DNA of 64,000 nt from Balanoglossus misakiensis (Eukaryota > Animalia > Hemichordata): positions 8,941,124-9,005,123 of the forward strand of contig CM082596.2 of the NCBI GenBank assembly GCA_040954595.2, in the 5' to 3' direction. The stretch's first letter is position 1; every line of letters begins with the position of its first letter. Shown piece by piece: positions 10,483-55,331 of the stretch. Position numbers and translations under genes: made by a program. The notes beneath the pieces are model-generated. The model was not told the origin of the DNA and did no database searches. It saw only the letters and a list, made by a program, of their open reading frames with translations.

Positions 10483-10590
10483 CTGATTGACAGGAAAATA
10501 GAAGTCTCTGTGCTGTTCGGCGCTCCAGGTCTAAATGAAAATTACTCTCGGCCTTAGGGCTTATTATAAGCAGTTAACATCGCTTATAAT
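10483..10590 (-). promoter_or_regulatory. Putative core promoter and non-coding first exon of the lectin gene
   Basis: Minus-strand donor CAG|GTATGT at 10482, TATA-like TATAATAA ~10561-10568, acceptor at ~9930 ahead of the ATG exon; retained in units 3 and 4. Confidence 0.35.
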
Positions 10591-15630: not shown

Positions 15631-17239
15631 ATAATCTGCTGGAAAGTGTAAAGAAGCTGAAAAGAAAAGTAAAGTTTCTAAGAAGCAAGATAGTGAAACT
15701 GCAAGCACAGAACCTGAAGAAACAACGATTTTCGATGAGTGACATTAAGTCATGCGACAAGAGTGTTCAATTCTACACAGGGTTTCCTTCTTACCATTGC
15801 CTCGACTTAGTATTTCAGCGTTTGGTGAAACCACTGGCTGTAAAATTGACTACAAATACAAGAGCCAGACACGTGGTCAAACCCTGGCATAAAAGAGGGA
15901 AGAAACCAAGCCGTCCCCGCAAGTTATCCCTTGAAGACGAATTTCTGTTGGTCCTGATGAAAGTGAAACTTGGACTTCTGGATCAGGACCTTGGAGACAG
16001 ATTTGGGATCAGCAGATCACTAACAAGCCTCATAGTATCTCGATGGATTCCAGTTGTGTCGAAGTGTTTGCAGCCATTAATTACATGGCCTTCAAAGGAA
16101 AAGGTAAGATTTGTCTGTTTCTTCACTTACTCCTTTTAATTGAATACATTTCATCAAAAGTAAAACATAGGAAAAACAACCATCCATCATGTTATAAAAC
16201 TCTTAGTTCTACTCGCCAAAAATTGAACAGGTGTCCTTATGTATTGCTGCCTTTGCTTTTGCATTGAGTCATTATATTTACAGTATAGTACACTTTGTTT
16301 TCTTTCAGGTGCGTGCATGTATGCCTGCAGCATTCAGAGCAAAGTATCCTGCCACTAGGGTTATCATAGACTGCACGGAGATATTCATTGAACGTCCAAG
16401 TAATGTGGTCGCCAGACAGAAAACGTATTCGAATTACAAATCGCACAATACCATGAAGATTCTTATCGGCATTTCTCCATCGGGTGCTATCACTACTGTG
16501 TCAAAGCTGTGGGGAGGAAGGGCATCGGACAGGACCATCGTTGTAAATTCTGGTAAGAGCTGTAAAATGGATTTGTTTATTTTACAATTAAATAACCTAT
16601 TTTTGCAGAACTAAAGTTTAGCACTTCTGTGTTGTTTCTTTCTCTTAACGTGTCAGAATTACAGCAGGAAATACATATTTTTTATAATATATGATGTGTT
16701 ATTAAAGCTCTTAGCTACCCTAGCTGCAACTGTTTATTTTCAGTATTAAGAGTACATGTTTGCTGTAAATATTTTTAGTTTTGCATGTCATGTTTCCTTT
16801 CTAGTGGATTCTCCGAGACATACAAAACTATACATTATATTACATGTACTTGTGAGTGCAGAGAAATGACTGTTTCCATGTACACTCTTTGTTTTAATCA
16901 AAAACAGGACTCCTTGACCAGTTGGAATATGGTGATCAAGTGATGGCGGACAGAGGGTTTGCAATTAGCGATGTCCTGGCAGAAAGAGGCTGCACTCTGA
17001 ACATCCCACCATTTACCCGAGGAAAAACACAACTTAGCCAAATTGAAGTGGAGAAAGGGCGCCAAATTTCAACCCTAAGAATTCATGTGGAGCGGGCAAT
17101 TCAACGTATAAAGAAGTTCCGAATTCTTCAAGGCGTGTTCCCACTGAAGAGAGTTTATTTACTGCATGACATTTTCATAATTTGCTCGGCCATCTCAAAT
17201 ATGCAGCCTCCTCTGGTGAAAGACAACAGGCCTGGTTGA
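15631..17239 (+). pseudogene. Harbinger/ISL2EU DDE transposase lacking its N-terminus; exons 15631-16103, 16309-16552, 16908-17239
   Basis: Coiled coil, V.FYTG, HTH (EDEFLLVLMK..LG...DLGDRFGIS), catalytic IIDCTE, MADRGF, RIHVERAI; GT-AG introns in matching phase. Confidence 0.9.
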
Positions 17240-18475: not shown

Positions 18476-21260
18476 CTAGGTGCACTGGTTACAAAACCAG
18501 TCTCCAGACAAACAGCTGTCAGTTCCTGTCACTCCAACGCACGAAAAATGAAACCAAACATCACATCGGTCACAAGCAACGGCATGGTTCTTCACTGCAC
18601 GGCTGCATACACCGCATGGCCATCGGCACTTTCTGCGTTTTGGTGAGCTTGAACAGGCTGGCTGTGGCTGACATCTTCTGGACTTTGGTTTGCTGCGTCT
18701 GCTGGACGAATTCGACTGGTGATTATGTGATGAACTTGCTGATGATGTGGGTAATTGTGCAGTTGTTGATGAATTACGGCGTGGTGATGATTGTGCTGAT
18801 GGTAGTCCAGGTTGTTCTTCAAGTGTTGCTGCTGATGAGCCTGGTTGTGGTGAAGACGGATGCGTTCCGGGTTGTGGGGAAATGGTTGTAATCTGGCTTG
18901 TGACATGGGTTGGTGAGCCGAAGCCATCTGCCATCTGGGTAGACCCTCCATCACTGACTTCATCTACTATCTGGGGAATCACATGTCTTAAATAGAAGGC
19001 ATCGATGTTCTTCTTCAGTCTCTCCCAAAAAAATCTATCAAAGGTGACAGGAATGATAACAAGACCTTTCTTCGTATAAACAATAAAGTCACAGAGATTG
19101 ACATCCGACAAGGCCATCTGCACCTGCACTTGCGTATAGTATTGGTGAGATTTTGACAGCGTGTAGCCTCCTTCACCATCTCTCTTTATGTAAGGAATAA
19201 TACTGTCCGCAGCATCTTGAGGTTTCATGTCCCTTGCTGTGTATGGGCATTTACACTCAAGGACACGGTCAATGCAGCAGTCGCATGAAACCTTCCTATC
19301 AGCTGAGGCACCAATGTGAGAGTCTCCTGGACAAACTGACAAGCCACATCGCTGCACAACTAAATTCTTATGGCATGATGACATGACCTCTACATATCTC
19401 TCGACAGCTATATCTTCATTCTCCCTTCCCCATCGTATTGGTGCTGGTGGATTGTTGTTGTTTATGTTGGAGTGTCCTTTCACTGCATTCATGGTTGTTC
19501 TGCAGGGGGTGTCTCCTCTTCTCTCCATGAAGCGGTGAACAGCGTGTATTTTTGATGCTGTCAATCTGTATTGTCTGTGTTGGTACCAGGCACCACTGCT
19601 ACTCTGTTGGAGGGTGTTGTTGAAGAGCACTGATGCTTGTTCAGAATCAATACTCTGCCGGATTTTCTCAAAAAGTTCGCTGTGTGTCAAGTCATTTTCA
19701 GCCATGCATCTGGCGGCCACTTCAGTAACTGTCTCTGCATTTCTGGTACTGGTTGCCTCTTCATGGAATTCTTCACTCTCAACTGTCTCTACTTCAACCT
19801 CATCTAACACCTCATCAGAAACGGCATCATGGGTTATGCCTGGACTGGGGTCAGCAATTGTATGTAGGGCAGAGTTACCAACAGTAGAAAAGATAGTGTC
19901 CCATACTTCCTGAGGATCAATCTCTGAATCACTCGGTAGGGCTGGTCTGAAGGGTGCTTTGGCTACCTTGCCATATTTAGGATGGTGAAAATCTATTTCA
20001 TCCACAGTAGCAGGCTCAGTCTTCTCGGAGTAAAAGTCATTCCAGACGCATGGGAGGTCTGTACGTGTGTTTGGTCGGTTAACACCTAATTCTGTCGCAC
20101 TTACTATTTTAAATAGCAAGGCACCAATATGGGTACACGCTTCCCCTAACCTGTAACATGAGAAGAAATTCAAAATAAATACAACTCAGAGAAACCAAAA
20201 AAGGTGATGGCAATGAAGTCAAATGCTTGCAAGTATAAATAATTGAAAGTATGATTACATGTCAATTCTTTATAATGTATCACGATAATGACAATAAACC
20301 CCTTTATATTTCAAACACTTTAACTCACCAAGAAAAAATATTCACTTCAAATTATATGACTTATCACACTCTAATTATCTAGACAGTACTCACCCAGCCA
20401 TACACTTGCAACGAGCTCCCTTTATTGACAGGTCTTCTCTGTTGACCATTACCCACACAGCATATGGATCCGTATTTGCCTGGGATCTGCGAACTGTGGT
20501 TTTAATGACTGTGTACGGACTGTTCGGAACTTTGTAAACGTTCAGTTTGTTTACAAAGCCATTCTGCACAAACTGGTATGCATCGAGTGAACGGAATGCT
20601 CTCAGCGAATCCCTTGTGTAAAGTCCTGCAGGGAAATCAATAATCATATCTTAGCATATTTAAATATTTTTGTCAGTGTCAATGACATTTTAACAAAGTC
20701 TCACTGACTGTAACAGTGCAGGAACACTGATGTAGATTGACTCCACAAACTTCCTTTGGTATAGGTACCAATGAAACACTATCACAGTGTATGCTGAATT
20801 TCTCACAAAACATCACATCAATCTGACCAACAAATCCTAAAACGACATTCCCGATTCATTAAGATGTTTAACACCGAACTAAACAAACAAATATAAAAAG
20901 CAATAATATGCACAATATACCTTTGGTATGTATCAGGTAATTAAAAACATCAACATATTCCAGTGGAGGGGTTTGCTGCACATCATCCTTCCAGTGAGAT
21001 GGGTCCAAGCCGTCGGGATCAGGAAGCTGTTGGCCATTCTCTCCTGTCAATATATCTGTCAATCGCTTCTGGCTGTTCAGTTCTGTTTCCAACTGTGATG
21101 GCCGGATTGGTATCTTTAGTTTCCACGCCCAGTATGCTAACGTAGCCAGCTGCTCCTGTTTACCATCTGCTCGCATCCCTCTGTGGCCTAGATATTTCTT
21201 CAGCTCTTTAACTGTGTATTCCAAGAAATGATCAACAGTTAGATTATCAGAATTATCCAT
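18476..21260 (-). CDS. ISL2EU ORF2, ~748 aa: SAP-like N-terminus, SWIM zinc finger, YqaJ/lambda-exonuclease-like domain, C-terminal PHD finger; exons 21260-20921, 20625-20394, 20150-18476
   Basis: TVKELKKYL..RG motif; CKCMAG|LGEACTH (SWIM, split by intron); W...R..RLTAS, WG..NE, GASAD, ECKCP, YY.QVQ.QM; CxxC...CxxC..WFH..C...WFCxxC; phases 1 and 2 match, no stops. Confidence 0.88.
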
Positions 21261-23662
21261 ATCAGGAAAAAAAGCAACACTCTTACTATAGAAAAGCAAA
21301 AAAATAACTATCTTAGATTAGGGTTATGAAAAATAAAAAACAGTTAACACAATCTCTGGTTAGGATTACAAAAAATGTAAAAATGTATTAGTCCCAGCAA
21401 AATTAGGATATTAATATTAATATGCAATTAATAACAGTTAGGCTTAACTTATGTCAATATATCTATAAAGTTACAGATTAAAAGTTAACAATACCACTAT
21501 TACATCAATAAATTAAGAAAACACAATAGGGAGGACTAAAACACTGACAATGTTAATGACTTTTACAACAGTATAATGGGATGTTGAGGAAACAATATAT
21601 GTAGCTCAAATAATTATAAAACAACAATAAACTGACAAATATAAAAATTGCACTGTTATAAATATAAAAGACTAGTCGGCCAAACGTTTCACCAAACCCT
21701 TTCCACTGGAAACTACAGGTCAGGAAATACACTGAAAGGAAGAAAAAATATGACAAAACACTTGATCAGCTACTTTCAATGATTTGAAAATAGTAAACTT
21801 AAGCTGTGAAACTGTAAACTAGACTATCAGAACACAGAAAAAGTCTATGTTACAGATGTATGCGCCACGCCCCCTTTCAGAAACACCACCCTGTGCTTGC
21901 AAAGTTCATAGCTAAGCTATCAAAAGTTGGACTTGGTTTTCTCTTTTTTTTAAAAAAAGAAGGAAAATATCTTACAGACTCTAAATAATTTGAGAGTAGG
22001 TAGGTCAGGTTGAGACACGGGAATACCCCCACCCCAAGTAAACTAGACTATCAGAACACACTGTCAAGCCTATGTTACAGATGTATGTGCCACACCCCCT
22101 TTCATAACAGGATCTTGCCAAAGTCTTGATCATTTTTGTTTCTGAATTGAGAAGACAATTTGAGAGAAAGTACCTGCATTGCATCTGATGATTTTCATAT
22201 ACAACTACAAGTGCAAGTGTTACACATCCTGTTGTTTGTTATGCTAATAAGTGTCACACACAAATGAAAAGAAAGTGTGAACCTGTGCTTTCAAAGTTCA
22301 CAGCCAAGCTTTCAAAAGAGGGGCTTGGTGTTTTCTAAAAACAAACATCTTTCAAAAAAAGAACAAAAAATATCTTACAGACTCTAAATAATTTGAGAGT
22401 AGGTAGGTCAGGTTGAGACACGGGAATACCCCCACCCCAAGTAAACTAGACTATCAGAACACAGTGTCAAGCCTCTGTTACAGATGTATGTGCCACACCC
22501 CCTTTCATAACAGGATCTTGCCAAAGTCTTGATCATTTTTGTTTCTGAATTGAGAAGACAATTTGAGAGAAAGTACCTGCATTGCATCTGATGATTTTCA
22601 TATACAACTACAAGTGCAAGTGTTACACATCCTGTTGTTTGTTATGCTAATAAGTGTCACACACAAATGAAAAGAAAGTGTGAACCTGTGCTTTCAAAGT
22701 TCACAGCCAAGCTTTCAAAAGAGGGACTTGGTGTTGTTTAGCAAACTTAGTTTTTCACGAGAAGGAAAGAACGAAAATGTTGAAAAATCAGCAACTTTGA
22801 GCAATTACAAAAAGGTAAGAGCAATCAGCAAGTTGGTTGGCAAGGGGATTCGGAAGGGGATGTGTTTTCTGAACTTTCAGTCAAGTGATGAGGCTGTGAG
22901 AACTGGACGCTCAAAGTGGAAGACAAGTAACTAGAACGGAAAGAAAACAAAGTTGCTGAATCCACCGTGTTCGGGTGTACTCTGATCTGGTCTCACTATT
23001 CAGAAACTGGCAAATTCAGACATACACGAGAGTAAGAACTGGTTCGCCGGAGCGAAAAGTAAAAAACATAAGTGTACAACTTACCTCCTGCACTGCAGTG
23101 CTCCGATGTCTTTGGCCTTTAAAAAACTCTCAAAAATCTTCTAGAAAAACGATGACAGACGAACGACGACGATAAAAACGGTAGACAAGAACTAAAAGTA
23201 GGTATGCAAGGAATATCTGTTGTAAAAAGCGATCGTAAACGATGGCGAGCGTGAGCGTTTGCATAGCGATGTTGACGTAAGAACGTGAACGGCGCAACTG
23301 ACGTACCCGCGAGATGTCCGATCCCTAGGCCCTCCAATCGGCCCCGAGCTATCCCACAAAACACCGCGTTTTCCAAGATGGCGGTAAAGACAAACCTGGC
23401 CTATAACAGTCCCTCGGGCCTTACGGCCCACGCACCACGAAACGCCGAATCGGGCCTTCGGCCCTCAAAAGATACGGACCTTACGGCCCTCGCACGAAAC
23501 GCCGAATCGATACACATTAGGCGCGAGGGACTGTCGACAGTATAGGCAAAATCGAAACAAGCAATTGTCCCGGGTTCGATTCCCGGCCAACGCATGTATT
23601 TTTTTGCAGTAAACATGTATGTTGGGCAAGAATTGGCGTGCAGACGGCATCTCTCCCAACAG

Positions 23663-23734
23663 GCGTTGGTGGTGTAGTGGTTAACATAGTTGCCTTCCAA
23701 GCAATTGTCCCGGGTTCGATTCCCGGCCAACGCA
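23663..23734 (+). tRNA. tRNA-Gly(TCC)
   Basis: 72 nt GCGTTGG...CCAACGCA cloverleaf, A box TAGTGG, anticodon loop CTTCCAA, B box GGTTCGATTCC, downstream T7 terminator. Confidence 0.88.
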
Positions 23735-23802
23735 TGTATTTTTTTGCAGTAAACATGTATGTTGGGCAAGAATTGGCATGCAGACGACATCTCTCCCAAC
23801 AG

Positions 23803-23874
23803 GCGTTGGTGGTGTAGTGGTTAACATAGTTGCCTTCCAAGCAATTGTCCCGGGTTCGATTCCCGGCCAACGCA
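23803..23874 (+). tRNA. tRNA-Gly(TCC), second copy in a 140-bp tandem repeat
   Basis: Identical to 23663-23734. Confidence 0.88.
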
Positions 23875-23942
23875 TGTATTTTTTTGCAGTAAACATTTAT
23901 GTTGGGCAAGAATTGGCATGCAGACGACATCTCTCCCAACAG

Positions 23943-24001
23943 GCGTTGGTGGTGTAGTGGTTAACAAGCAACTGTCCTGGGTTCGATTCCCGGCCAACGC
24001 A
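23943..24001 (+). pseudogene. tRNA-Gly pseudogene lacking 13 nt of the anticodon arm (also at 39969-40027 and 55400-55458)
   Basis: GGTTAAC joined to AAGCAA; ATAGTTGCCTTCC missing. Confidence 0.85.
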
Positions 24002-25444
24002 GATTTTTTTGCAGTTGGATATTTCTTATCAGATAATATTCACTTACTCACTCACTCACTCAATTCACTCACTCACTCACTCACTGAAGTCTGAAACACC
24101 ATGTATGGCTTGTTCTCTCGTTCATATAATTTTGAAACGGTCCACTTTTGAAAAACACATTTCACATTCTCTGCACAAATCCCCACGTTTTACTTAAAAA
24201 ACGGACACGAAAACACCGAGAGCAGTATCAGAATGTATTTTGCAACGTTATGACTACGCATACTTGCTGAAAAAAAATGAACCCGTTGTACGTGTCGCGA
24301 TTTGCAAATAGTCCACACGTTAACGTTTCCATCAGCACACTTTCTCATCAACTGCAAGTCCAAGTAAAATTGACAGACAACTGGAACACAGTGCGTGAAT
24401 TGATATTTTAATTAAAGACGAAAAGAAAAGTGACAGCAAACATCAAGTAGACCGTCTCAAAAAACATCAGTTGCTGTTCAAGATTAGGTATTAACTTGTT
24501 TGACGGACAGAAACTAAACTGCAAAATGGAAGCAGTTGTGCTAACTCTATGGCATTGAATGCTGCGCATGCCTACTGGCAAGCATAGATTTCCACTCTCA
24601 TGGAGATATGACGATTCCAGGTAACTGGATAAAACCGGACAGACTCTGCTGTGAAAGCCTTGTCTCCCAATTCATGGTAGACAATTGTGTCCCGGTCAGA
24701 AATCGCAACGAAAATCTGAAACGTAAAACATGATAGTGTTTTCAGTTGATATAGGAAAGCTGGCCTTTCTGTAGGTTTACGCAATACACTGATGTAAGCG
24801 GTGATAGCCACCCCTTATATTTATTGTGCCAAAATTACTACCAATAATATATCCCAGAAATGTGTTTCCTTATTCTTTTCAGTCGTGTGTATGGTGTACA
24901 CTGTGCGCATCTTTAATATATCTTTAATATATATGTATGAACATTGTCAGGTTCTTCGAATCGGACATTGTGAAGTTCATACCTTTTCAGAGCCATCGTC
25001 CCGAGTCACATATGTCCATTGACCGTGTTCCTTCTGGTAGCCGAGTTTGAATGATGTCACCCACTGAGAATAATCACTTCACTCCTAAATTTAACAAGAA
25101 GAAAAGCGTGGTCACCATAAAATGTGCAAAATTCGGTTGAAACCGTTGGTACGTTGCGTTACAATGAGATACTATCTCGTTATAACGAGATAATTTTTTA
25201 TTTCTTGCTTTACAAAATGGCGTTTACGGGCTTTCATACTTTTACTATTCAGTCAATTTGGGTGTTTTTTACCGACGATCGACAGTACTGTGTTATTTAA
25301 AACCGCATCACACCGCGATAATTAATCCGCATATGCTAATGAGCTAATGAATATTCATTAGGACCATATATATAGTACGTTCGGTACCTAGAGCACACTT
25401 CCCACACTTCAACCACGAGAGCAGGTGCAGCGGCAGAGGAGAGC

Positions 25445-27403
25445 ATGGCATCCAATGGTACTGATCAGCCCGCCCAGCCAGAAGCCACGATAACTCAGGT
25501 TGCAACCACCGTGACGCCAAATGTAGCTGCGGCAGCGTTTGTTGCAGCGCATCGGCCTTCTACTTCCCAAGGTAACATTGAAGCCCATGGTGAATCGCAG
25601 ACAGCAACCCAGCAAACGCCCACTACCGCAGGTACAGGTGCAAGACCTAGAAGAGGAAACCGCGACGGCCTAGACCGTGTGCAAGGGAATGTAGAAAATG
25701 CTGCAGTAGCCGGAGAAACGGAGGTAAATAGTTTTGTGCTTCTTGTTTTTTCTCTGTCGTCGTGTTGTGAATTCTTGTTTTATATGTGTATCCAGCTGTG
25801 CGTTCGTCATTTTTTATTCATTTCATAGTTTTCCGCTTGTGCACTGAGACGCCGAGTGTCTGTTGCCTTCTCGATTCATTCATTGCGTAACTTTCTGACA
25901 CCTGTTGCACCCGTTTCCATGTGCATTGCTCATTTCATTTGGTCGTGCTATCACTTCATTGTTCATTTCACCGCTTTGTGTTTTCATGTCCATTCAGCCG
26001 TACATTGTTCATTTCACCCGGTTGTGCTATCACTACATTGTTCATTTCATCGCTTTGTGTTTTCATGTCCATTCAGCCGTACATTGTTCATTTCATCCGG
26101 TGGTGCTATCACTACGTTCATCTGTTAGTGGTTTCACGTACATTGCTTATTTCATCTCGTGTTTTACATGCGTTTTTGCGTGCATGTCTTCATTGCCTCC
26201 ATTCATTCCCGTTGTGACGCAAGGTGTGCTTTCATTGCTTCATTTCATCCCCGTGATGTCGGGCGTGTGTTTTTATTGTTACATTTCACCTAGGCCATTG
26301 TTCGCGCTTGTCACCCACGGCATGATGTAGACTGACGTAGCATGAACATCTATGGCCTTCCCCACATTCTGCATGCCTTTCCCGGGGTCTCTACCCATAA
26401 CCATGTATGTATATATGTACGTGTACATTGTCAGTCGCTATATAGTGTATTCTTCATCGTATTGACTATATTGATTATATCGAGGGGCGTGTAGGCCCGA
26501 TTATAGCGTGGGCGTGTAGGCCCGATTATATCGTTGGCGTGTAGGCCCGATTATATCGTGGGGCGTGTAGGCCCGATTATATCGTGGGGCGTGTAGGCCC
26601 GATTATATCGTGGGGCGTGTAGGCCCGATTATATCGTGGGGCGTGTAGGTCCGATTATATCGAGGGGCGTGTAGGTCCGATTATATCGTGGGGCGTGTAG
26701 GTCCGATTATATCGAGGGGCGTGTAGGTCCGATTATACCGAGAAACGTGGAAGCTCGATTATATGGTGGGGCCCGGGGTGGAGCGTGCAGCTCGATTATT
26801 ACGATAACCTGGCTTTGTGTGCTATGGGTAATACCTAGTAGTATAAATAGATGTGAAGGCAGCGCATATTGCATACTGGTTCTAGAGTGTCTTTGGTTAG
26901 ATGATTATGAGAATGTTCTTGCTATATTTCAGGTGAAGCGACAGCTTACTGAGTTACAGAGACAGATGGAACAAATGGTGCAGTCCAGTGGAACGGCATC
27001 GGTAGACGAGGCATTGCAAAAAGTGATGGATTTGGCACATAACCCCTCTGTCACATCTCGCAGCCAGTTGCTGAGTGCGTTGAGGGCATTGGTCGACCGC
27101 GCCACGTCTATTGGCCACTCAAAGTTGCATCGATACAGGGCAGTCCAGCTGTCACAGTTTGAATCCAATGACTTTGGAGATGAGGCTGGGCGACTGATAG
27201 TACTGTTGCTAGGCAACAAAGAGGAAGCAGAAATCGCATCCAAGGTTAACAAATTTATGCAGCATGCAAAGAGCCGTCCTGCGCCCTATAATCGCCCAAG
27301 ATGGAGAGGGGGTGATCAGTACCGTGGAAATAGAGATGGAAAGTGTTATGTTTGTGGATTACCAGGTCACTTCGCTAGAAGTTGTGACAAAAAGAAAGAA
27401 TAA
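25445..27403 (+). CDS. Gag-like protein, spliced (25445-25723 + 26933-27403), ~249 aa, CCHC zinc knuckle
   Basis: ATG-initiated low-complexity leader, donor GAG|GTAAAT, acceptor TATATTTCAG|GTG in frame; C-terminal CYVCGLPGHFARSC. Confidence 0.78.
26470..26737. repeat. ~26-bp minisatellite GATTATATCGTGGGGCGTGTAGGCCC x ~10 inside the retrotransposon intron
   Basis: Directly visible contiguous tandem copies; a second ~75-bp tandem repeat lies at ~25925-26115. Confidence 0.92.
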
Positions 27404-27607
27404 TGTATACAATTTGGCTTGATGCTTGAAATGTAATAAAACGTAATATAATCTATATTGTGTCTGGCCTTTTTTCATTATCCCCTGGGCAGGGGGGCTA
27501 CCTCAAGAAGCCCTTTGCTGTTTCAGCAACCTGCATATGCAGGTCCTGTCTGGGGGCGCCCTCATGTAACCCTACTAGTGTTACATTCCCTTTGTGTTCT
27601 CTTGCAG

Positions 27608-29788
27608 TTTCACACCCCCGAGTGGGAATACCTGTACGAGGTGAATCGGGAGTCCTGTGTACGACAATATCACTCTTGGGTTACATGTGAGGGCGCTCCC
27701 AGGCAGGTGGAATATGTCGAGCTGCCAAGTGTCAAAGATGTTGCTATGGGAAAAGTATATGCTTCGCCAAGTGATTTATTTTACCGAGACCCCAATGAAT
27801 TCCAGGCTGGGGAACTTCATAACCATGTAGAATTCTGGCAAGATATCACCCGGTGTTTACTTGACCGTGATGTGATCATGGACTGGCTAATTAATGGAGT
27901 GTACATTTCACGATTCATGCAACATTTTAAAGGACAATTTAAGACCCGAGATTATGACCATGTCGCACCCCCTTGTCAAGCATTTTACAACAACCCCCAA
28001 TGTAGCCAATTTGGCGAGTTTATTGCCAAGACCTTGGGGGACAGATTACAGTCTGGGGCTATATCTAGATTTGGAAAAGTTGGATGTGATCCACCCCCTC
28101 GCATTGTTATGCCCATAACGATTGAACCCACAAAACCCCGACTGTGCACAGACATGCGCTTTCTCAATCTGTGGATTTCAGACATCCCCTTTTCGCTTGA
28201 TAAATTACTCGAGGTCACAAAATACCTCGATGGTAATGATTACCAGTTTAAGTGTGACGATAAGAGTGGGTATGATCACATCCGAATAGCAGAACCCGAT
28301 AGAGTGTACGTGGGTTTTCAGTGGGCAGGGTATTGGTATATTTGCAATACCCTGCCATTTGGATGGAAATTATCTGCATATATATATCAGACAGTAGGTT
28401 ACTGTATTACTAGTTATGTCAGATCCTTAGGTGTACCATGTATACAATACATAGATGACCGGCATGGGGGCGCACTGCGCCTGCCCAGAGGGAAAAATCA
28501 ACAGAATTGGGGTAAAGCACAATTGGCAGAGGCCGCAGCCTACATTTTGTTAAAAACGTGCATCGATGCTGGATACTTTATATCACTAGACAAAAGCGTG
28601 CTGAAACCAGTCCAACGCTTGGTGATGTTGGGTCTGACTGTAGACACCGTAGATATGGCTTTCTCCATACCAGAGAAGAAAAAATGCTCATTCTTGGAGC
28701 TAGTTAATGGGGTCTTACAAGCAAAAATGACCCACCTATCCCTAATTCAGAAGATCATGGGCAAATGCATTTCGCTATCCTTAGCCATACCATGTGCTAG
28801 GTTGTATATCAGACAAATGGCGACCGTAGTGGCAAAAGCCAATTCTACAGCGAGATCCGTGATAGCTTTAAAGAGCGCCCTCAGAGGGGAGCTAATGGAA
28901 TGGGTTAGAATAGTTGAAAGCGCGCAGAAATTTAAATGGCCTATAGAAGAACACGTTGAGATTTCCATCTCCACCGATGCTAGCTCATATAAATGGGGTG
29001 CGATATTACACCAAAGTCATGAGGTGGATTCTGATATCATAGTCAGCGATATGTGGGAGAACGAATGGGCGGGAAAACCAATAGTGCTAAAGGAGGCCGA
29101 GGCATTGCTGAGAGCTCTGATGGCGTTTCAAGAAGTAACACGGGACAAGCGTGTTGACGCAAATGTGGACTCCATGGTATTGACACAAGTATGGGCAAAG
29201 GGTACCCCGGGAGCCAAATCAGTCGCCCTCAATGAAGTAGTCCGCAAGTTGTTTCATTGGTGCGTGGATAATAACATCAGGCTGACGCTTAGATACGTGA
29301 AGTCATCAGACAATAAAGCAGACGCGCCGTCAAGAGAGATATCGCCGATGGACGCTGCACTAACCCCCAAAGCGTGGGAAAAGGTTCAGAAATTGTTCGG
29401 GCCACACCAGATGGATGCCATGGCAAACAGTTCCAATACAAAATTGCCGAGGTTCGTGTCCCCATTCAAACAGCCTGGCTGTGAAGGTGTGAATATATTT
29501 CACCATAGCTTCTCGAGGGATGACAAGCTGTATATATATCCACCCTTTGTACTGGTACATGCTGTCCTCCGACACGTTATTCAGCGAGGATATAAGGCTA
29601 CAGTGATCGTACCCAGACACAGATTCACTCCACCGTTCTGGCCACTCATACGCCAAAAGGCAGTGGACATTCAGCAGATAGGAGAACACGGAGAAGACGA
29701 TGTGATCCTTATACCAACAAAGTACGGTTATGCACCACGTAGTCTCAAGTGTGACTTGTATGCTGTGTCTCTAGGCGATAGAGTATAA
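27608..29788 (+). CDS. Reverse transcriptase - RNase H - adenine methyltransferase-like polyprotein (DIRS/PAT type)
   Basis: PRLCTDMRFLN, DDKSGYDH, LPFGW, YIDD (RT); TDASSYKWGA, LKEAEA, VDS, N.ADAPSR (RH); DAMA...K.PRF.S and YIYPPF (MT-like); no stop or frameshift; begins at a splice acceptor. Confidence 0.9.
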   Translation, partial: FHTPEWEYLYEVNRESCVRQYHSWVTCEGAPRQVEYVELPSVKDVAMGKVYASPSDLFYRDPNEFQAGELHNHVEFWQDITRCLLDRDVIMDWLINGVYISRFMQHFKGQFKTRDYDHVAPPCQAFYNNPQCSQFGEFIAKTLGDRLQSGAISRFGKVGCDPPPRIVMPITIEPTKPRLCTDMRFLNLWISDIPFSLDKLLEVTKYLDGNDYQFKCDDKSGYDHIRIAEPDRVYVGFQWAGYWYICNTLPFGWKLSAYIYQTVGYCITSYVRSLGVPCIQYIDDRHGGALRLPRGKNQQNWGKAQLAEAAAYILLKTCIDAGYFISLDKSVLKPVQRLVMLGLTVDTVDMAFSIPEKKKCSFLELVNGVLQAKMTHLSLIQKIMGKCISLSLAIPCARLYIRQMATVVAKANSTARSVIALKSALRGELMEWVRIVESAQKFKWPIEEHVEISISTDASSYKWGAILHQSHEVDSDIIVSDMWENEWAGKPIVLKEAEALLRALMAFQEVTRDKRVDANVDSMVLTQVWAKGTPGAKSVALNEVVRKLFHWCVDNNIRLTLRYVKSSDNKADAPSREISPMDAALTPKAWEKVQKLFGPHQMDAMANSSNTKLPRFVSPFKQPGCEGVNIFHHSFSRDDKLYIYPPFVLVHAVLRHVIQRGYKATVIVPRHRFTPPFWPLIRQKAVDIQQIGEHGEDDVILIPTKYGYAPRSLKCDLYAVSLGDRV

Positions 29789-29939
29789 TATACACGTAGA
29801 TATATCATGAGAAGATGTTTTTACACATAATTCTCTCTATCATAGTATGTTCAAACATAAATAAAGTAAACAAATGAATATACGTAATGGAAATAGTTAA
29901 GTTCGTGGTCATTATTTATGCATTATCTCATATCCACAG

Positions 29940-31196
29940 ATTTTGTGCTGGATGTGTGGAGTAAGAAACGATGAGCAACAGACACAGTGTCAGATGTGTT
30001 CAACATTGCTAGCGCCAATTAAGCCTCCACGAAATCATACCAAGATTGTCAATACACCAAATCTACTCGCGATAGACCAACGTATGCACGAGGTGCTGGG
30101 ACACAGGTCTCCATATGAGATACAAAAGGACAGGATTATACAGCAACTTGAATCCTTCATGAGCGCAGTTCCCGGGCAGGTGGGTCTGGCGGGAGTAAAA
30201 CCAGAGCATATCGTGAAATTTCTTATATACAAGGATAAAGACGCAAAGACGCAAGTACATCAGGACATATGTGATTATTATGGGAGGGAAGGCCACATGC
30301 CTTGTCAATGTCCAAAACGCCTGACATCTGGCACATTAAAAAATATGGTATCAAAAATGAGTGCATTTTTTCAACAACTGCCTCGAGATAACCCGACCAA
30401 ATCAATTATGGTAGAAAGATATATTAAAAAAATGTCAGAAGAGCAAGCCAAGGCACACGTTATGCCAAAACAAGCGAAACCCTTGTTTTTGCAGAAGATG
30501 AAGTTGATATTTGGGCACATTCTTAATAAATTAGCCAGAGCCACGACAATTGGTCAGATTTATATACTGGCTCGTGATATAACCTTCTTCAAAGTTCTAA
30601 TGTTCTCCGGAGATAGAGCGGGAGATCTGGGTAATGTCAAAACACAGGAAATTCTCCGTTTCCCAGATAATTCAGGTTTTATATTCAACCATACATACGG
30701 GAAAACATTAAGAGGTGCTACATCAAACATGTTTGCAATCAAGCGATGTATAGATGTAGGGATCTGTCCAGTATACGCCATCGAGCAATACATCACTCTA
30801 GCAGAGAGGATTGGGATAAATTTAAGAAGGGGACACATGTTCCGCCCAACGACACCAAGTGGTGAGGTAGACCAACGCCCTCTGTCGTCACAGGCAGTCT
30901 ATGGTCGCCTTAAAACGTATTTGCAGGAGCTGAATTTAGATCAAGGGGAAACACCCCATGGCTGTAGAAGTGCTTGTGCCATCTCGTTATCATTAGCGGG
31001 GGCACAAGTAGACGACTTGTTACGTCATATTGGATGGAAGTCAAAAGATATGGCACATCATTATACAAAATTGTCACAAGTATCAGCAGCCCAGGGGCCG
31101 GCTGAGAAACTTAGAAAAACAGTTGATATGAACACGGTCTTGACACAAGAGTATGAACAGGCAAATAACTTGACGGGTTTTTCTCAAGCCTTCTGA
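29940..31196 (+). CDS. Tyrosine recombinase with N-terminal CxxC-x10-CxxC zinc ribbon
   Basis: Catalytic pattern GDRAGDL, GKT, HGCRS, HIGW, HHYT; CWMC...CQMC at the N-terminus; begins at acceptor ATATCCACAG. Confidence 0.9.
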   Translation: MLCWMCGVRNDEQQTQCQMCSTLLAPIKPPRNHTKIVNTPNLLAIDQRMHEVLGHRSPYEIQKDRIIQQLESFMSAVPGQVGLAGVKPEHIVKFLIYKDKDAKTQVHQDICDYYGREGHMPCQCPKRLTSGTLKNMVSKMSAFFQQLPRDNPTKSIMVERYIKKMSEEQAKAHVMPKQAKPLFLQKMKLIFGHILNKLARATTIGQIYILARDITFFKVLMFSGDRAGDLGNVKTQEILRFPDNSGFIFNHTYGKTLRGATSNMFAIKRCIDVGICPVYAIEQYITLAERIGINLRRGHMFRPTTPSGEVDQRPLSSQAVYGRLKTYLQELNLDQGETPHGCRSACAISLSLAGAQVDDLLRHIGWKSKDMAHHYTKLSQVSAAQGPAEKLRKTVDMNTVLTQEYEQANNLTGFSQAF

Positions 31197-34088
31197 TGTG
31201 TACATATAGATAAGTAAATAATAATGGATATGGAATGTTTAAGCACATACAGCGTGCTGTTATCCCTGTGTAATGTAAATATTAGTGTCTATCATATTAT
31301 TAGTAGTACTAGCATGTGAAGAGATTGCTTTTCTGCTGTAATTGCCATGGTGACTATTAATCATGTATTTGTAAGTTGTGAAAATAAAGACATGATGGAT
31401 CAAAACATATGATCACATCCAAATAACAGAACCTATAGAATGTATATGGGTTATATTTCAGTGTCAATAGGTTTGGGAAATATAATTGAGTGAGCTGATG
31501 GATATGGGGTATTTAAGGTATGGGAACATGAGTAGGGTTCTTATGGTAATTGCATAGATAATGAAGAGAAGCGAGTTTTGCCGTAGATAACAACGATCTG
31601 ACCCAATCCTTATTACAATAGGCAATATTCTTGAGCGGGGTGGTAAGGCTTTAAATATTATATTATTTAAAACCGCATCACACCGCGATAATTAATCCGC
31701 ATATGCTAATGAGCTAATGAATATTCATTAGGACCATATATATAGTACGTTCGGTACCTAGAGCACACTTCCCACACTTCAACCACGAGAGTAAGCAGTG
31801 CTAGCGGTTGATGAGAAAACTCCATAGGTAAAGGGAGGGGAGGGGAGGGGAGGGGAGGGGGAGATTTGGTAATTCCCCACCCGCCCACCCGATCTTAGTC
31901 ACTCCGCTCCGGAATTCGCCTTCGATAACAACGATCTGACCCAATCCTTATTACAATAGGCAATATTCTTGAGCGGGGTGGTAAGGCTTTAAATATTATA
32001 TTTTTCAATATTCTAAATATTTCGAAATGCGTTGTGTACATACTTGTGTGGCGACCTTGGTGACCTTCCTATCCCCACCAAGGTCAACTTGCAACCACTG
32101 TGCGGCGTTGTTATTCAAGGCACACCACGAATGGGAATATCCAGATGGGCCATGGTAGTTAAGCCTTCCTTGATGAGACATGTGCTTATTATTCCAATTA
32201 GAGCTCGCCGTCATCTGCGAATTTGGAATAACTCGATTCTCTACACCAACAGGCTCGGAGTTACACGGCCCTGAAATCGGTGATACATTTTAGTAACAAG
32301 GGACGGACGTTACAGTCGACTGATTTTGGGGTATTTTTGTCAATATTTCCCGATGCATCAACACCTGCAGTTTCGTATTCTATGTTCGATGGCTTTATGA
32401 AAATTTATATTTTTAGCTTCCAACAAAGCCTGCACATGAGTAAAGGCCAGTGTTATGTTGACAAATACTTAATGTCCGGACTTGGAGTCAATTTTCAACA
32501 ATAACAATTCTGATTAATACAAAATGTCTAAAACATTGTCCTCTACAACTATTTTTTTGTAATATTACCCTATATGTAAACATTTCCAGCCGATACATTG
32601 CAGCAGAATAATTCTGAAAATGATTTTTACTTGGGTGACAAGTGTAACCAACGGCCAAAATGTAGTTATTCGCACCTGATTTTTGTCAGATGAAACCCCG
32701 TTTCTCTGCACAGTCACTTGTTTTCCAGTAACCGTCATTAGCTTCCGATATGACAGCACAGTCCAAACTTCCCGGGCGCCGTGGTTCTGATGTGGCCCAG
32801 TTTCTGTATGACAGCTGTTGAATGAAAAAAATCACGTAATTCACCTGTATTCTTCAATTGAAAGCAGTATGATAGGACTACAGAGGCACGAGATTAGTGT
32901 GTTATACCTCTTTTTGGTTTCTTCACGTTGCCATAAAAATATGGGCATCTATTCGTCGAATTCGATATTAATTGGCTTTTCAAGTATACTTTCAACAATG
33001 TTTTCCCATTCTCACACTCCTGGCACGCTGAGAGTGTGGGATCAGATTGGGAGAATATATTATTCCGCACACTGTTATCAAGTGTGGTTCTCATGCAAAC
33101 TGTAATCATGATTAGATATCCTTTCAAGTAACACCATCATGCACGAAGAAGGCGTAATTACAGAGCAAATCATCGATCGAACACACAAACAATCTTGTTG
33201 ATCAATAATACTGGAACTAGATTCGCTGCATGCATGCGATATTATCAATAGACAAAGAAATGCATAACACCAACCTCAGTGCCATCTTCCCACCTCCAGT
33301 CAGCTTCGTTCTCGATGTCACTTAAACCAATCCACAAGTTTTGTTTACCAGATATCATGGTATAACCTAATTATGTATTAATATAAAAAATAACGTCATG
33401 GGTCTATGCCACATCAAAAACAAAACAACACGGAAAATCGCTCATTTGGTCTTGAAGTCGAGTTTTGATGTTGACTCATATGCAAATGTACACTACCTGG
33501 CTTGGAGTAGGAATTGTCACACTGGTTGAAATAAAAGGCGTTTGAGATGACAAAATCCGTATCTGCAGCCACGTATATAAATATTAGAAAGAGTCAAACT
33601 GCATTTGAATTTAGAATTTGATACAACTGTTGGGAGAAATGATTTTCTAAACATATTTTTCTCGGGTTTCTGAAATGAACTCTACAGCGGGTGTTCAGGA
33701 TTTTGAAATATATTACGGGCCTTTCTTTCAGTTTTGGATATTCTTGCTTGAACTCTGCACCAGCGACGCAAAAAACACTATTTTTCAAGTTTTTAGCCAC
33801 GAAAAGAGTTCATTTACTATTAGGAGATCCCACACGTGTGGCCTTATTATGTTTTTGTTACAGGGGCTCCACATTCTACAAATGGTTGATGTATGATAGC
33901 CTACTTACCTTTCAGAAACAGGTTTTTATGGGAGTCGTCGATAGTGACAAGCTCCCCACCTTTGCCTCTACAAATCGACTTGGCCTCGTCGTACGTGTAC
34001 ACTTTCTCGAGGTATGCATAGTACAATTTGTCCGCGAAGTTGTCCCATTGTGGTTCACAGCCTGGTGGAGAAATTGAAGGTACATTAA

Positions 34089-34418
34089 ACGGACAAATTC
34101 TCTCTCTCGTTGCCCTTTTTCCATTAATTATGTTTGATACAAGACACCGTTTATGTTAATGTACATGTGTATGTAGTGAATGAACGTTCGACCACACACA
34201 ACTTCCATCCCACTTGTAAGATATGAGAGTAAAAACTTACCCAAAATGAATCAATGGTAGAGACCGATTATTCAATTTGGCGAGTTTTTTCACTCTCGTG
34301 GAAGGTGTGTGTGGTTGAACGTTGATTCACTGATTATCCACATGTAAATTAATATAAACAGTGTCTTGTACCAAACATAATTAATGAAAAAAGGCAGCGG
34401 GGGAGAGACTTTGTCCCT
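34089..34418. mobile_element. Kolobok-like MITE in copy 2 intron (no LINE inside); orthologous copies at 44106-45376 (with LINE) and 58815-59161
   Basis: TTAA-flanked palindrome, same sequence as 7951-9223. Confidence 0.75.
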
Positions 34419-35248
34419 TTAAGTCTACCAAGCAGGTCGTTATTACGTCGTTGCTTAAACACCATTCGACTGCTTCGTTGTGTGTGGGTGGTGTGAACTA
34501 CATTACCTAAACAAAACCACCATTTTAGCCGCTCTGCTGTTGTACAGGTAAAGGGCAATAGCCGAGGATAAAACTACTGCAGGTATTGCCCCATTAACTA
34601 AGACAGATAGAAAGACATACATACAGATAGAGACAAGCACGTGCATACAGTCACCACAATCAATGCAAGTTGTACCAACACTAGTCATCCAATAAATAGA
34701 ATTAAGCAAAAAAAAAACGAATAAAAGAAACTAATTCTCTGTGTATAGTAATATTCACAAAAGCCTGGAACTCTTAGTCACATAGGACTATGTGGTGATG
34801 AAAACAAAAATCAAAAATCAAATCTAGCATACAAAAATAAGTTATTAAACTTCAAGAGCGTATTTTGTTGTTGGCCGTGCACTGATGAATCAAGAATATT
34901 AAAAAAAAATAAAGAACAGCTGCAGATGTTAACGTGAAATAATGGGCAATTGGAATAAGCAACATCAAAATTAATGAGTAGGTGTATTGTCCTATTCGAA
35001 CATGTTACAGTACCTTTCGCGGATGGCAATGCCTCCGTGACCAACAAACCCAGTAGAGCCAGATACAATTTCATTTTTGACAATTTCTGGTGTCTGGCAG
35101 CGGTTACCATACGATGAAATTCCAGCAGCCTTCAAAGAGAATAGAATAGCTTTGTATCAAAATGACTTCTACGTACATTTTATCACTGGGACTTGGCTTT
35201 TGGTTCACGCATATTGTGAATTGGGAAAGACTTCAATGATTATAAGCC

Positions 35249-38800: not shown

Positions 38801-39710
38801 CAGGCTCGAGACGCGCGTAGTATCCCTATCCCAGAAAGAGGGTCTGGGGAAACCCCACAGACCAATCTCCGGGCAAAGATGGCCGACTCGGGACAAAAGC
38901 GGTGCATGATGGTCAACATTTATGACATACGATATTATGATATGACGATATTAGAAAACTATTTACCAAACTTCTCTTTCTCTTTTCAATTTGTAGACAG
39001 TTTCAGCAGGTCTAGCACGTCTCAGCATGTATTTTTAATGTTCGAGTCTGCAACCATCGTGCATCGCTTTTGTTCCGAGTCGGCCATCTTTGCCCGGAGA
39101 TTTGTCTGTGGGGTTTCCCCAGACCCTCTTTCTGGAGTGCCCAACGGAAGAAGCAGGGGGGTCTGGGTAACCGAGACTAGGGTTTCCCCAGACCCTCTTT
39201 CTGGACTGCCCAACGGAAGAAGCAAGGGGGTCTGGGTAACCGAGACTAATGTAAACATGTGACAGGAGCATTCGTCTATATTTTCCAAGAAAGGCTTCTG
39301 GGCTTCCGAACACAAGATTAAAGCTCCCCTTCACCAGATTTGCTTGACTTGATGATCGGTCGAGCTAACATGTCCCGAACTAAAGCCAGTTGCATTACAG
39401 GTGAATTTCCCCACAATGCCGTGTGAGGGCGAAACAAGCTATAACAGTCCCTCGGGCCTTACGGCACTCGCACCACGAAACGCCAAATCTATTAAATCAG
39501 ATTATGACCTACGTACTTCAGCACCTCCTTAATTTTGTAGAGTATAGATAATATTCGTGTAATACGTTACCATGGACTTTTTAAAGCGACAAAAGACATT
39601 AACATTTGCATAGTAGAGTTCACGTTTCTTGTGCAAAAAATGTTCCTTACGGCCCTCGCACGAAACGCCGAATCGATACACATTAGGCGCGAGGGACTGT
39701 CGACAGTCTA
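35820..39710. mobile_element. Rearranged remnant of the hAT-like foldback element (left end lost, right end intact)
   Basis: Same internal sequence as 12170-15630; ends TGTCGACAGTCTA|GGCAAAAT. Confidence 0.8.
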
Positions 39711-39828
39711 GGCAAAATCGAAACAAGCAATTGTCCCGGGTTCGATTCCCGGCCAACGCATGTATTTTTTTGCAGTAAACATGTACGTTGGGCAAGAATT
39801 GGCGTGCAGACGGCATCTCTCCCAACAG

Positions 39829-39900
39829 GCGTTGGTGGTGTAGTGGTTAACATAGTTGCCTTCCAAGCAATTGTCCCGGGTTCGATTCCCGGCCAATGCA
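39829..39900 (+). tRNA. tRNA-Gly(TCC), variant with a G-U pair in the acceptor stem
   Basis: Same as 23663-23734 except 3' end CCAATGCA. Confidence 0.8.
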
Positions 39901-40584
39901 TGTATTTTTTTGCAGTAAACAAGTATGTTGGGCAAGAATTGGCGTGCAGACGACATCTCTCCCAACAGGCGTTGGTGGTGTAGTGGTTAACAAGCAATTG
40001 TCCCGGGTTCGATTCCCGGCCAACGCAGATTTTTTTGCAGTTGGATATTTCTTATCAGATAATATTCACTCACTCACTCACTCAATTCACTCACTCACTC
40101 ACTGAAGTCTGAAACACCATGTATGGCTTGTTCTCTCGTTCATATAATTTTGAAATGGTCCACTTTTGAAAAACACATTTCACATTCTCTGCACAAATCC
40201 CCACGTTTCACTTAAAAAACGGACACGACAACACCGAGAGCAGTATCAGAAAGTATTTCGCAACGTTATGACTACGCATACTTGCTGAAAAAAATGAACC
40301 CGTTGTACGTGTCGCGATTTGCAAACAGTCCACACGTTAACGTTTCCATCAGCACACTTTCTCATCAATTGCAAGTCCAAGTAAAATTGACAGACACCTG
40401 GAACACAGTGCGTGAATTGATATTTTAATTAAAGACGAAAAGAAAAGTGACAGCAAACATCAAGTAGACCGTCTCAAAAAACATCAGTTGCTGTTCAAGA
40501 TTAGGTACTTGTTTGACGGACAGAAACTAAACCGCAAAATGGAAGCAGTTGTGCTAACTCTATGGCATTGAATGCTGCGCATGC

Positions 40585-43500
40585 CTACTGGCAAGCATAG
40601 ATTTCCACTCTCATGGAGATATGACCATACCAGGTAACTGGATAAAACCGAACAGACTCTGCTGTGAAAGCCTTGTCTCCCAATTCATGGTAGACTATTG
40701 TGTTCCGGTCAGAATTCGCAATGAAAATCTGAAACGTAAAACATGATAGTGTTTTCAGTTGATATAGGAAAGCTGGCCTTTCTGTAGGTTTACGCTACAC
40801 ACTGATGTAAGCGGCGATAGCCACCCCTTAGGCTGCATTCACAAACACCTCTGGAAGGGGGGGGGGGTGGGAGAATTGAGGGGGGGGGATTTGAAAAAAT
40901 TGAGGGTATGTAAGGGGGGATTTGAAATAATTTAGGGACGGAAAGGCGGGGGACTTGAAAACTTTGACGACTAAATATTTATTTTGAGTCCACAAAAATG
41001 CAGTTTCGCGCCCTTTATTTTACAAAATGTTCTCCATTCATCAACACCCTTCAATCATTGACTGGTTTATCTAGTGTCCCAGGTCGGGGGACTTGCCTCC
41101 ACCCCATGATAACTTTGAGCGGTGACGGTTAAATTTGTCCTCCCCAACATACCGGTAGTTGAGTTAATTTGCTTTTGCAGGGTTCATTAAAATGCAGCTT
41201 TGAGCTCTGTATTTTATAAAATTTTCTTACCCACCCCCTTCGATTCTCGGTTTACAATGTCTCCCAACACAAATACAAATACTTAAAAAGTAAAAACAAT
41301 GTTCAGTTTTAATACCCACTGATGAGGGGAAACATCAGTTCCAAATTCTTTTCATGGGAGCGCTGTTTTTTCTTTTTTACAAGATAGATAGGTGATGTGT
41401 TTTGCTCTGTGAAAGAAAATGGGGGGGGGATTTCAAAATTTTGGCAGCTCGGAAGGGGGGATTTGAAAATATTTCGGGTTGTGTAGGGGGGCATGTGAAA
41501 ATTAGCGGTAAAAAAATTGAATTCTCCCGCCCCCCCACTCCAGTTTTGTGAATGCAGCCTTATATTTATTGTGCCCAAAATTACTACCAATAATATATCC
41601 CAGAAATGTGTTTCCTTATTCTTTTCAGTCGTGTGTATGGTGTACACTGTGCGCATCTTTAATATATTATATGTATGAACATTGTCAGGTTCTTCGAATC
41701 GGACATTGTGAAGTTCATACCTTTTCAGAGCCATCGTCCCGAGTCACATATGTCCATTGTCCGTGTTCCTTGTGGTAGCCGAGTTTGAATGATGTCACCC
41801 ACTGAGAATAATCACTTCGCCCCTAAATTTAACAAGAAGCTCACCATAAAATATGCAACATTCGGTTGAAACCCTTGATACGAGATACTATCTCGTTATA
41901 ACGAGATACTATCTCGTTATAACGAGATAGTTTTTTTCTTGCTTCACAAAATGGCGTTAACGGGCTTTCTTACTTTACTATTCATTAAATTAGGGTGTGT
42001 TTTTTACCAACGATGTAATGTGTTATTCATTATTCAATATTGTAAATATTTCAAAATGCGTTGTGTACTTACTTGTGTGGCGACCTTGGTGACCTTCCTA
42101 TCACCACCAAGGTCAACTTGCAACCACTGTGCGGCGTTGTTATGCAATGCACACCACGAATGGGCATATCCAGAAGGGCCATGGTAGTTAAGCCTTCCTT
42201 GATGAGACATGCACCGACTATCATAATTAGAGCTCGCCGTCATCTGCGAATTTGGAATAACTCGATTCTCTACACCGACAGGCTTGGAGTTACACGGCCC
42301 TGAAATCGGTGATACATTTTAGTAACAAGGGACGGACGTTACAGTCGACTGATTTTGGGGTATTTTTGTCAATATTTCCCGATGCATCAACACCTGCAGT
42401 TTCGTATTTTATGTTGGATGGCTTTATGAAAATTTATATTTTTAGCTTCCAACAAAGCCTGCACATGAGTAAAGGCCAGTGTCATGTTGACAAATACTTA
42501 ATGTCCGGACTTGGAGTCAATTTTCAACAATAACAATTCTGATTAATACAAAATGTCTAAAACATTGTCTTCTACAACTAATTGTTTGTAATATTACCCT
42601 ATATGTAAACATTTCCAGCCGATACATTGCAGCAGAATAATTCAGAAAATGATTTTTACTTGGGTGACAAGTGTAACCAACGGCCAAAATGTAGTTATTC
42701 GCACCTGATTTTTGGCAGATGAAACCCCGTTTCTCTGCACAGTCACTTGTTTTCCAGTAACCGTCATTAGCTCCCGATATGACAGCACAGTCCAAACTTC
42801 CGGGGCGCTGTGGTTCTGATGTGGCCCAGTTTCTGTATGACAGCTGTTGAATGAAAAAAATCACGTAATTCACCTGTATTCTTCAATTGAAAGCAGTATG
42901 ATAGGACTACAGAGGCACGACATTAGTGTGTTATACCTCTTTTTGGTTTCTTCACGTTGCCATAAAAATATGGGCATCTATTCGTCGAATTCGATATTAA
43001 TTGGCTTTTCAAGTATACTTTCAACAATGTTTTCCCATTCTCACACTCCTGGCATGCTGAGAGTGTGGGATCAGATTGGGAGAATATATTATTCCGCACA
43101 CTGTTATCAAGTGTGGTTCTCATGCAAACTGTAATTAGATATCCTTTCAAGTACACCATCATGCACGAAGAAGGCGTAATTACAGAGCAAATCATCGATC
43201 GAACACACAAACAATCTTGTTGATCAATAATACTGGAACTAGATTCGCATGCGATATTATCAATAGACAAAGAAATGCATAACACCAACCTCAGTGCCAT
43301 CTTCCCATCTCCAGTCAGCTTCGTTCTCGATGTCACTTAAACCAATCCACAAGTTTTGTTTACCAGATATCATTGTATAACCTAATTATGTTTTAATATA
43401 AAAAATAACGTCATGGGTCTATGCCATATAAACAAAACAACAACACGGAAAATCGCTCATTTGGTCTTGAAGTCGAGTTTTGATGTTGACTCATATGCAA

Positions 43501-47358: not shown

Positions 47359-47405
<47 letters not shown>

Positions 47406-55137: not shown

Positions 55138-55259
55138 TATAGGCAAAATCGAAACAAGCAATTGTCCCGGGTTCGATTCCCGGCCAACGCATGTATTTTT
55201 TTGCAGTAAACATGTATGTTGGGCAAGAATTGGCGTGCAGACGACATCTCTCCCAACAG

Positions 55260-55331
55260 GCGTTGGTGGTGTAGTGGTTAACATAGTTGCCTTCCAAGCA
55301 ATTGTCCCGGGTTCGATTCCCGGCCAACGCA
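55260..55331 (+). tRNA. tRNA-Gly(TCC)
   Basis: Identical to 23663-23734; followed by a T-run terminator. Confidence 0.88.

Follow-up and report, generated by a model that had tools for sequence, protein, structure and literature searches.

Among described tyrosine-recombinase (YR) retrotransposons, the closest systems to the element considered here are the ALOG-containing DIRS1-type retroposons of marine animals (Iyer and Aravind 2012, PMC3537659), with which it shares a Gag zinc knuckle, a reverse transcriptase (RT)-RNase H, probably an inactive adenine methylase, a YR with an N-terminal zinc ribbon and ALOG domain, and direct terminal repeats, and the echinoderm-form Pat1-like elements (PMC4157794, PMC3266345), with which it shares A1-B1-A2-B2 repeats, probably a methyltransferase (MT) domain, a Gag zinc finger and a YR on the same strand. 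The main text of the former source makes no mention of introns or splicing (0 matches) and infers that all animal copies are inactive, whereas the copy described here has three intact open reading frames (ORFs) and identical repeats; the text consulted of the latter sources contains no leader exon, introns or internal polyadenylation (poly(A)) sites, and the likeness is drawn by features. Our element, an intact PAT-like DIRS tyrosine-recombinase retrotransposon as classed by its repeats and domains, occupies positions 25293 to ~32005 of a 64,000-nucleotide stretch of the hemichordate Balanoglossus misakiensis (GCA_040954595.2, contig CM082596.2, positions 8,941,124 to 9,005,123), hereafter the window, in whose numbering all coordinates are given. 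Gag, RT-RNase H-MT and the recombinase are probably made by splicing one ATG-bearing leader onto each of three in-frame acceptors, and we infer splicing in this element from conservation in relatives together with database gene models.

The leader coding exon (25445..25723, plus strand, as are all features of the element) comprises 93 codons of low complexity, has no Pfam family and ends at a phase-0 donor, GAG/GTAAAT. Its ATG at 25445, with A at -3 and G at +4, is the first past a TATA-like box (25367-25375), and T content climbs from 13% to 57% across the donor, which scores 4.0 on an approximate weight matrix of our own, the basis of all splice-site strengths given here, with four GT sites farther downstream in the element scoring above it. 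The predicted intron 1 (25724..26932; 1209 nt, T-rich) holds tandem repeats at 25921-26144 and 26473-26772, and tandem repeats upstream of gag are present in relatives too. Acceptors at 26933, 27608 and 29940 open stop-free phase-0 ORFs of 156, 726 and 418 aa with no overlap, followed by AATAAA at 27435..27440, 29860..29865 and 31383..31388; the leader, its donor, the acceptors, the ORFs and the three poly(A) signals are all where the first-pass annotation had placed them. Among the 436 AGs of the element, the RT acceptor ranks 1st and the gag acceptor 5th.

The gag terminal exon (26933..27403) encodes a CCHC zinc knuckle (zf-CCHC, E 2.9e-5), its first Met being codon 12. The second terminal exon (27608..29788; first Met at codon 47) matches RVT_1 (E 1.2e-7) and RNase H (E 6e-4), with YIDD and the RNase H acidic residues present, and likely carries an MT-like domain after RNase H, where a Dam match at aa 590-651 (E 0.09) falls under the curated cut-off while DAMA and YPPF motifs stand where expected. 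The YR terminal exon (29940..31196) encodes a four-cysteine zinc-ribbon motif (CxxC...CxxC at aa 3-20), an ALOG domain (E 1.5e-17) and a Phage_integrase domain (E 6e-11) with the R, HxxR, W and Y motifs. Three further splice candidates were set aside: an internal gag donor of the kind found in a mollusc clade scores -0.1 in this element; a recursive donor at the gag acceptor (CAG/GTGAAG) finds no backing in relatives, whose first gag residue is not a conserved Val; and a donor-like AGA/GTAAGC after repeat A2 (31791) is under the 2.5 cut-off and absent at that place in most relatives.

The case is carried by conservation, since the pattern exceeds chance through signals conserved in relatives and not by the scores of this copy alone. 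We compared donor, acceptor and phase across relatives, as the first-pass annotation had proposed, taking the best 80 of 335 confirmed related stretches from a metagenome scan, which fall into 47 clusters at 80% nucleotide identity; loci entered the phase test, one per cluster, when the match started by residue 25 (RT), 10 (YR) or 20 (gag) and upstream DNA was present. The best acceptor was in phase 0 in 20 of 23 families for RT, 13 of 15 for YR and 8 of 13 for gag (by loci, 32/36, 25/28 and 12/18); with wider windows and looser filters that admit broken copies, the figures were 41 of 56 loci (a hand count), 25 of 34 and 11 of 17. Phase 0 turned up in 65 of 204 control windows within RT and, for the adjacent upstream T-rich spacer, in 2 of 21 families. 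In 11 of 23 RT, 8 of 15 YR and 5 of 13 gag families the ORF is opened by an in-frame stop that coincides with the acceptor's own TAG, which rules out read-through or frameshifting from upstream in those families, and in four YR families the first ATG lies 138-313 codons beyond the acceptor. Phase-0 acceptors are retained across proteins only 35-47% identical to this RT, showing, at the level of sequence, that the splice signals survived deep divergence.

Leaders behave likewise. Through a composition filter open to all three phases, we found 17 leader-like ORFs outside the window, in relatives, that end at a GT, 16 of them in phase 0; 14 of these 16 rows (10 families) look like true leaders and two, from L049, probably are not, while the sole phase-2 row is a deleted copy, L056. 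L056 is without the donor, intron 1 and gag, yet it looks like the outcome of a deletion and not like a spliced copy; within 5076-5919 it has kept repeat A, the greater part of the leader, the poly(A) signal of gag and the RNA fold described below. No intron-less DNA copies were seen, none of 15 leader-bearing loci (a small sample) having non-intron sequence after the leader end. Another locus, L062, was considered as a Gag-Pol fusion and set aside, its open gag-to-RT frame being due to a frameshift.

Database gene models are the nearest thing to transcripts here. In amphioxus, five RefSeq sequences join a low-complexity leader ending in Glu directly to RT, without gag, and a sister family has a leader plus gag model. 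A profile search with the oyster N-terminal domain found, among 150 of 158 matches listed, products continuing into gag, RT or YR; the oyster proteins P0227 (gag), P0228 (RT) and P0150-P0152 and P0155 (YR) have a common N-terminus, and the residue at which they diverge is the same in all. P0227, found on a Logan contig, continues through the break-off points of shorter homologues and likely derives from spliced RNA. The mussel models P0242 and P0377 fit locus L022 exon by exon, all in phase 0 and joined exactly at GT/AG pairs, running from a donor inside gag to an RT acceptor that the acceptor scan had picked. That donor stands at the same codon in 3 of 26 families, all on one tree branch; neither the other 23 families nor this element has it. 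Two designs can thus be told apart in these sequences: in one, that of this element, a short leader faces three acceptors, and in the other the leader is structured, spans several exons, and gag is read through the donor.

In the sister clade with the second design (L022:842-2831, L017, L026; P0242, P0245, P0151, P0168, P0207), a conserved N-terminal domain of ~105 aa is spread over several exons, with no Pfam family found for P0245, and the donor inside gag lies after the coiled-coil region, so that RT and YR would carry the front of Gag; a mussel-type member has at least 2 further introns inside the leader. Such a mollusc and ribbon-worm leader, the conserved domain plus the Gag coiled-coil region, would fit co-assembly better than the tag of this element's clade, which is short, of low complexity and not conserved.

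Several observations weigh against the splicing of one leader onto all three exons. The YR acceptor of this copy is weak, 12th of the 436 AGs, and a non-coding AG at 29775 scores slightly above it (2.6 vs 2.2). Phase conservation for gag is marginal (p 0.03), an ATG lies within 12 codons of the acceptor in 5 RT, 2 YR and 4 gag families, and the families share ancestry, so that the acceptor and leader counts are not independent events. The gene models are not reads; several GenBank models join gag, RT and YR in other ways, and a search with the amphioxus leader (2 matches among 127 candidates) returned no gag or YR product of that family. Of the Ptychodera YR model sequences, which include the closest YR (51% identity), 7 of 8 run from the leader through the start of RT to YR, and all 4 YR models in one Lineus cluster also traverse the first part of RT.

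These last models suggest that YR could be reached by two splices, one joining the leader to a short first piece of RT and the next joining an RT-internal donor to the YR acceptor; in this copy a phase-0 donor (score 3.6) does stand at 27641, 11 codons past the start of RT. We consider this route unlikely for the element, as no phase-0 donor at a shared position was found in the first 150 RT codons of 33 related families, this copy lacks a phase-0 GT at the position of the Ptychodera junction, the models could reflect RT-deleted copies or modelling errors, and the oyster models together with Lineus P0372 reach YR without an RT piece. It is less probable still that only gag uses the leader, with RT and YR arising from internal promoters or re-initiation at their own ATGs and the acceptors being relics. 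Each ORF does have a Met (RT codon 47, YR codon 5), some families have an ATG near the acceptor, and the Ptychodera YR model P0201 begins at a Met just ahead of the zinc ribbon; but starting there would truncate conserved parts, since W24 and G29 of RT (conserved in 29 of 30 and 31 of 32 non-gap rows among 43 homologues) and the first zinc-ribbon Cys precede these Mets, that of YR lying inside the first CxxC pair. Several families, moreover, have no early ATG at all, and the persistence of phase-0 acceptors across the divergent RT proteins also speaks against relics.

That the acceptor-like tracts are chance features of T-rich spacers, with the ORFs translated from one unspliced RNA by frameshifting or read-through, is very improbable. 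The spacers are indeed rich in T, and in the texts consulted (among them PMC3266345) YR retrotransposons are usually given overlapping ORFs, splicing going unmentioned; however, the adjacent upstream T-rich spacer serving as control is rarely in phase 0, stops and 150-200-nt gaps separate the ORFs, and an unspliced RNA would have to be read past a short leader ORF and a 1.2 kb intron ahead of gag. We regard the feature as real and conserved, with gag and RT likely spliced. Taken part by part, splicing of the leader to gag and to RT is highly probable and a splice for YR very probably needed, while a direct leader-to-YR junction is only slightly favoured. The proposal of the first-pass annotation, one leader and three acceptors, is in this sense borne out for gag and RT by conservation and gene models and for YR as regards the need for a splice, the direct junction being contested by the Ptychodera and Lineus models that pass through RT.

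The first-pass annotation had also assigned each ORF its own poly(A) signal, which stands for gag and fails as a rule for RT. Counting AATAAA or ATTAAA per family against an expectation from shuffles, we found a signal downstream of gag in 18 of 21 related families (2.3 expected), of RT in 5 of 16 (1.1 expected) and of YR in 9 of 14 (2.5 expected); in this copy, the chance of such a signal in the shuffled spacer is 0.06 for gag, 0.53 for RT and 0.62 for YR, so that the last two are not above chance. The 11 of 16 RT-YR spacers without a signal weigh against separate mRNA ends, and across families RT does not generally have a poly(A) site of its own. Signals are present in 5 of 5 RT-YR spacers of at least 117 nt and in 0 of 11 of at most 85 nt, three of these eleven being 0-3 nt long with no acceptor found there. 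RT and YR mRNAs probably end at a shared site in most families; the 154-nt spacer of this element resembles the long-spacer group, and for the signal at 29860, whose function is uncertain, use and disuse appear evenly balanced.

A G+C-rich RNA segment (27482..27556), located downstream of the gag poly(A) signal and ahead of the RT acceptor, is predicted to fold into a four-way junction (z -3.8; 0 of 200 shuffles equally stable) and is a candidate packaging or export signal. Among 35 families unselected for folding, the 140 nt preceding the RT acceptor gave z under -2 in 16, vs 1 of 36 control windows in RT. Of the relatives anchored on the hairpin, 25 of 28 took a multibranch shape, 6.0 being expected, in a set enriched for folders (32 were tried, L018, L020, L030 and L046 were dropped, and six weak folders were left out). 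Covariation is consistent with this shape, as in an 11-sequence subset both sides changed in 8 of 14 pairs, matched by 1 of 500 shuffles, and the covariation score was matched by 0 of 500, the structure having been drawn from the same alignment; a second subset of 11 gave double changes in 5 of 13 pairs on an alignment that is poor across subfamilies. No consensus fold was obtained over all 29 spacer segments, which do not align, Rfam gave no credible match in 27482-27556 (and three chance-level matches elsewhere in the element), and no conserved hammerhead core was seen by eye.

This segment falls outside all three predicted mRNAs, which makes it a candidate for choosing the unspliced genome. 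When an artificial intron was placed close to the 5' end of Dictyostelium DIRS-1, the cDNA was found to carry it unspliced (PMC7192593), which fits protection of the genomic RNA from splicing. We put forward a role in genome selection tentatively, a role in acceptor choice being equally open.

Expression could then proceed as follows. Transcription likely starts in repeat A1, which contains the TATA-like box, and TATA-like motifs were spotted by eye in the A repeats of several relatives. Use of the nearest acceptor and cleavage after the AATAAA at 27435 would yield the gag mRNA, probably the most abundant, while read-through and choice of the distal acceptors would yield rarer RT and YR mRNAs, so that the Gag-to-enzyme ratio would be set without frameshifting. 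The unspliced fraction that runs through B1-A2 into B2 would serve as the genome, with the fold at 27482-27556 helping to select it. Reverse transcription would rebuild the ends via the split repeats, and YR would insert the product at a TATT-like site without target duplication, a step taken from the established DIRS/PAT model and fitted by the empty sites described below.

Self-comparison of the element resolves split direct repeats, A1 on the left (25293..25421) and B1 (31586..31664), A2 (31663..31791) and B2 (31924..32002) on the right, B2 being the right end; A1 and A2 are identical over 129 nt and B1 and B2 over a 79-nt core, and the junction sequence of the circle is reproduced where B1 meets A2. 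At 31833-31890, between A2 and B2, the window has a C-rich tract, also found in L001, L017, L043, L057 and L067, and in the window a long G-rich run leads up to it. In L009, L011, L023, L029, L045 and L065, a B repeat, a complete A and a further leader come after YR, an arrangement that tandem copies or circles would produce, and the contig ends of L029 are identical. A PAT-like assignment agrees with the YR on the same strand as RT, the RT, RNase H and YR domains (by Pfam and catalytic motifs) and a zinc finger in Gag (zf-CCHC above the curated cut-off), and the ALOG-containing DIRS1-type assignment with the zinc ribbon, ALOG and catalytic domain of YR. DIRS1-like elements in the strict sense have inverted terminal repeats and an internal complementary region, whereas self-comparison gives direct end repeats only; Ngaro elements have split direct repeats without MT, an exclusion that is moderate here, given the weak match of the ~150 aa with MT-like motifs after RNase H. 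The closest RT proteins are those of the acorn worms Glandiceps and Ptychodera (52-53% identity), and in a quick tree limited to relatives from this analysis the element groups with both and with two amphioxus families, which by itself suggests a marine deuterostome as host; scans of viral contigs found no relatives of the element.

The element lies within one of four copies of a host tandem unit (4684-11245, 23698-35248, 39709-47402 and 55140-61000; 95-98% identity), whose minus strand carries F5/8 type C and C-type lectin exons. The three paralogous units have empty sites near 5860, 42025 and 56745, target duplication is not evident, and the flanks of empty and filled sites are mostly 94-98% identical, all of which points to a recent insertion. 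Elsewhere in the window, tRNA-Gly(TCC) genes lie at 23663-23874, 39829-39900 and 55260-55331, in 140-nt tandem units inside the repeated host unit, and RT fragments of non-LTR retrotransposons at 8180-9040, 44381-45193 and 61128-62702 on the minus strand. ORFs at 15618-16139, 18476-20185 and 53895-54641 (HTH_Tnp_4, YqaJ plus PHD, and THAP), accompanied by long copies in inverted orientation (21267-23405 and 52222-53942) and by inverted arms of 566 nt at 52222 and 55141, are likely pieces of a DNA transposon.

In agreement with the first-pass annotation, to whose knowledge the three-way design was undescribed, we found no description of leader splicing in DIRS, PAT or Ngaro elements in the parts covered of a literature that includes PMC3537659, PMC4157794, PMC7192593, PMC5580714, PMC3266345, PMC6681497, PMC12477816, PMC9210276, PMC3783388, PMC8557442, PMC2632668, PMC3212892 and PMC9940879, with Repbase, the Goodwin/Poulter/Butler papers and supplements outside this scope. 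The same parts do not address how DIRS and PAT elements express RT and recombinase or choose their genomic RNA. The element offers exact predictions that can be put to the test, namely three splice junctions together with an early poly(A) site and an RNA fold, both conserved. If these hold, a retrotransposon can run a fully spliced, virus-like programme and still retain its introns through reverse transcription, and annotations that start ORFs at the first ATG, or call animal copies dead, need revision. A wider reading, which we hold with less than even confidence, is that in a widespread animal clade of YR retrotransposons every protein is translated from a spliced mRNA ending in one of the alternative terminal exons, and that a conserved multibranch RNA, lying past the gag poly(A) site and ahead of the RT acceptor, singles out unspliced RNA alone to be exported or packaged; an RNA-copied element could then carry up to several introns unchanged.

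Further parallels come mostly from outside the DIRS group. Retroviral env and foamy-virus pol mRNAs are spliced from one 5' donor to downstream acceptors, and the retroviral Psi packaging signal lies in the intron and is confined to unspliced RNA; unlike in the design proposed here, retroviral gag is translated from the unspliced RNA, and all retroviral mRNAs share a single poly(A) site. Introns have been reported inside the YR genes of some fungal DIRS elements, a different arrangement. Penelope-like elements (PMC8557442, in the part consulted) are likewise copied from RNA and keep introns after retrotransposition, including one near the 5' end, but their enzymes are unrelated, canonical members have a single ORF, and there is no three-way choice of terminal exons. 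In the plant Ty1/Copia element EVD, according to the text consulted (PMC5580714), alternative splicing and early termination yield a gag-only mRNA and an excess of structural protein, much as proposed here for gag. The full-length RNA of EVD, however, still encodes the enzymes, whereas in the B. misakiensis element all three proteins appear to need a splice, and its genome RNA would encode no protein directly.

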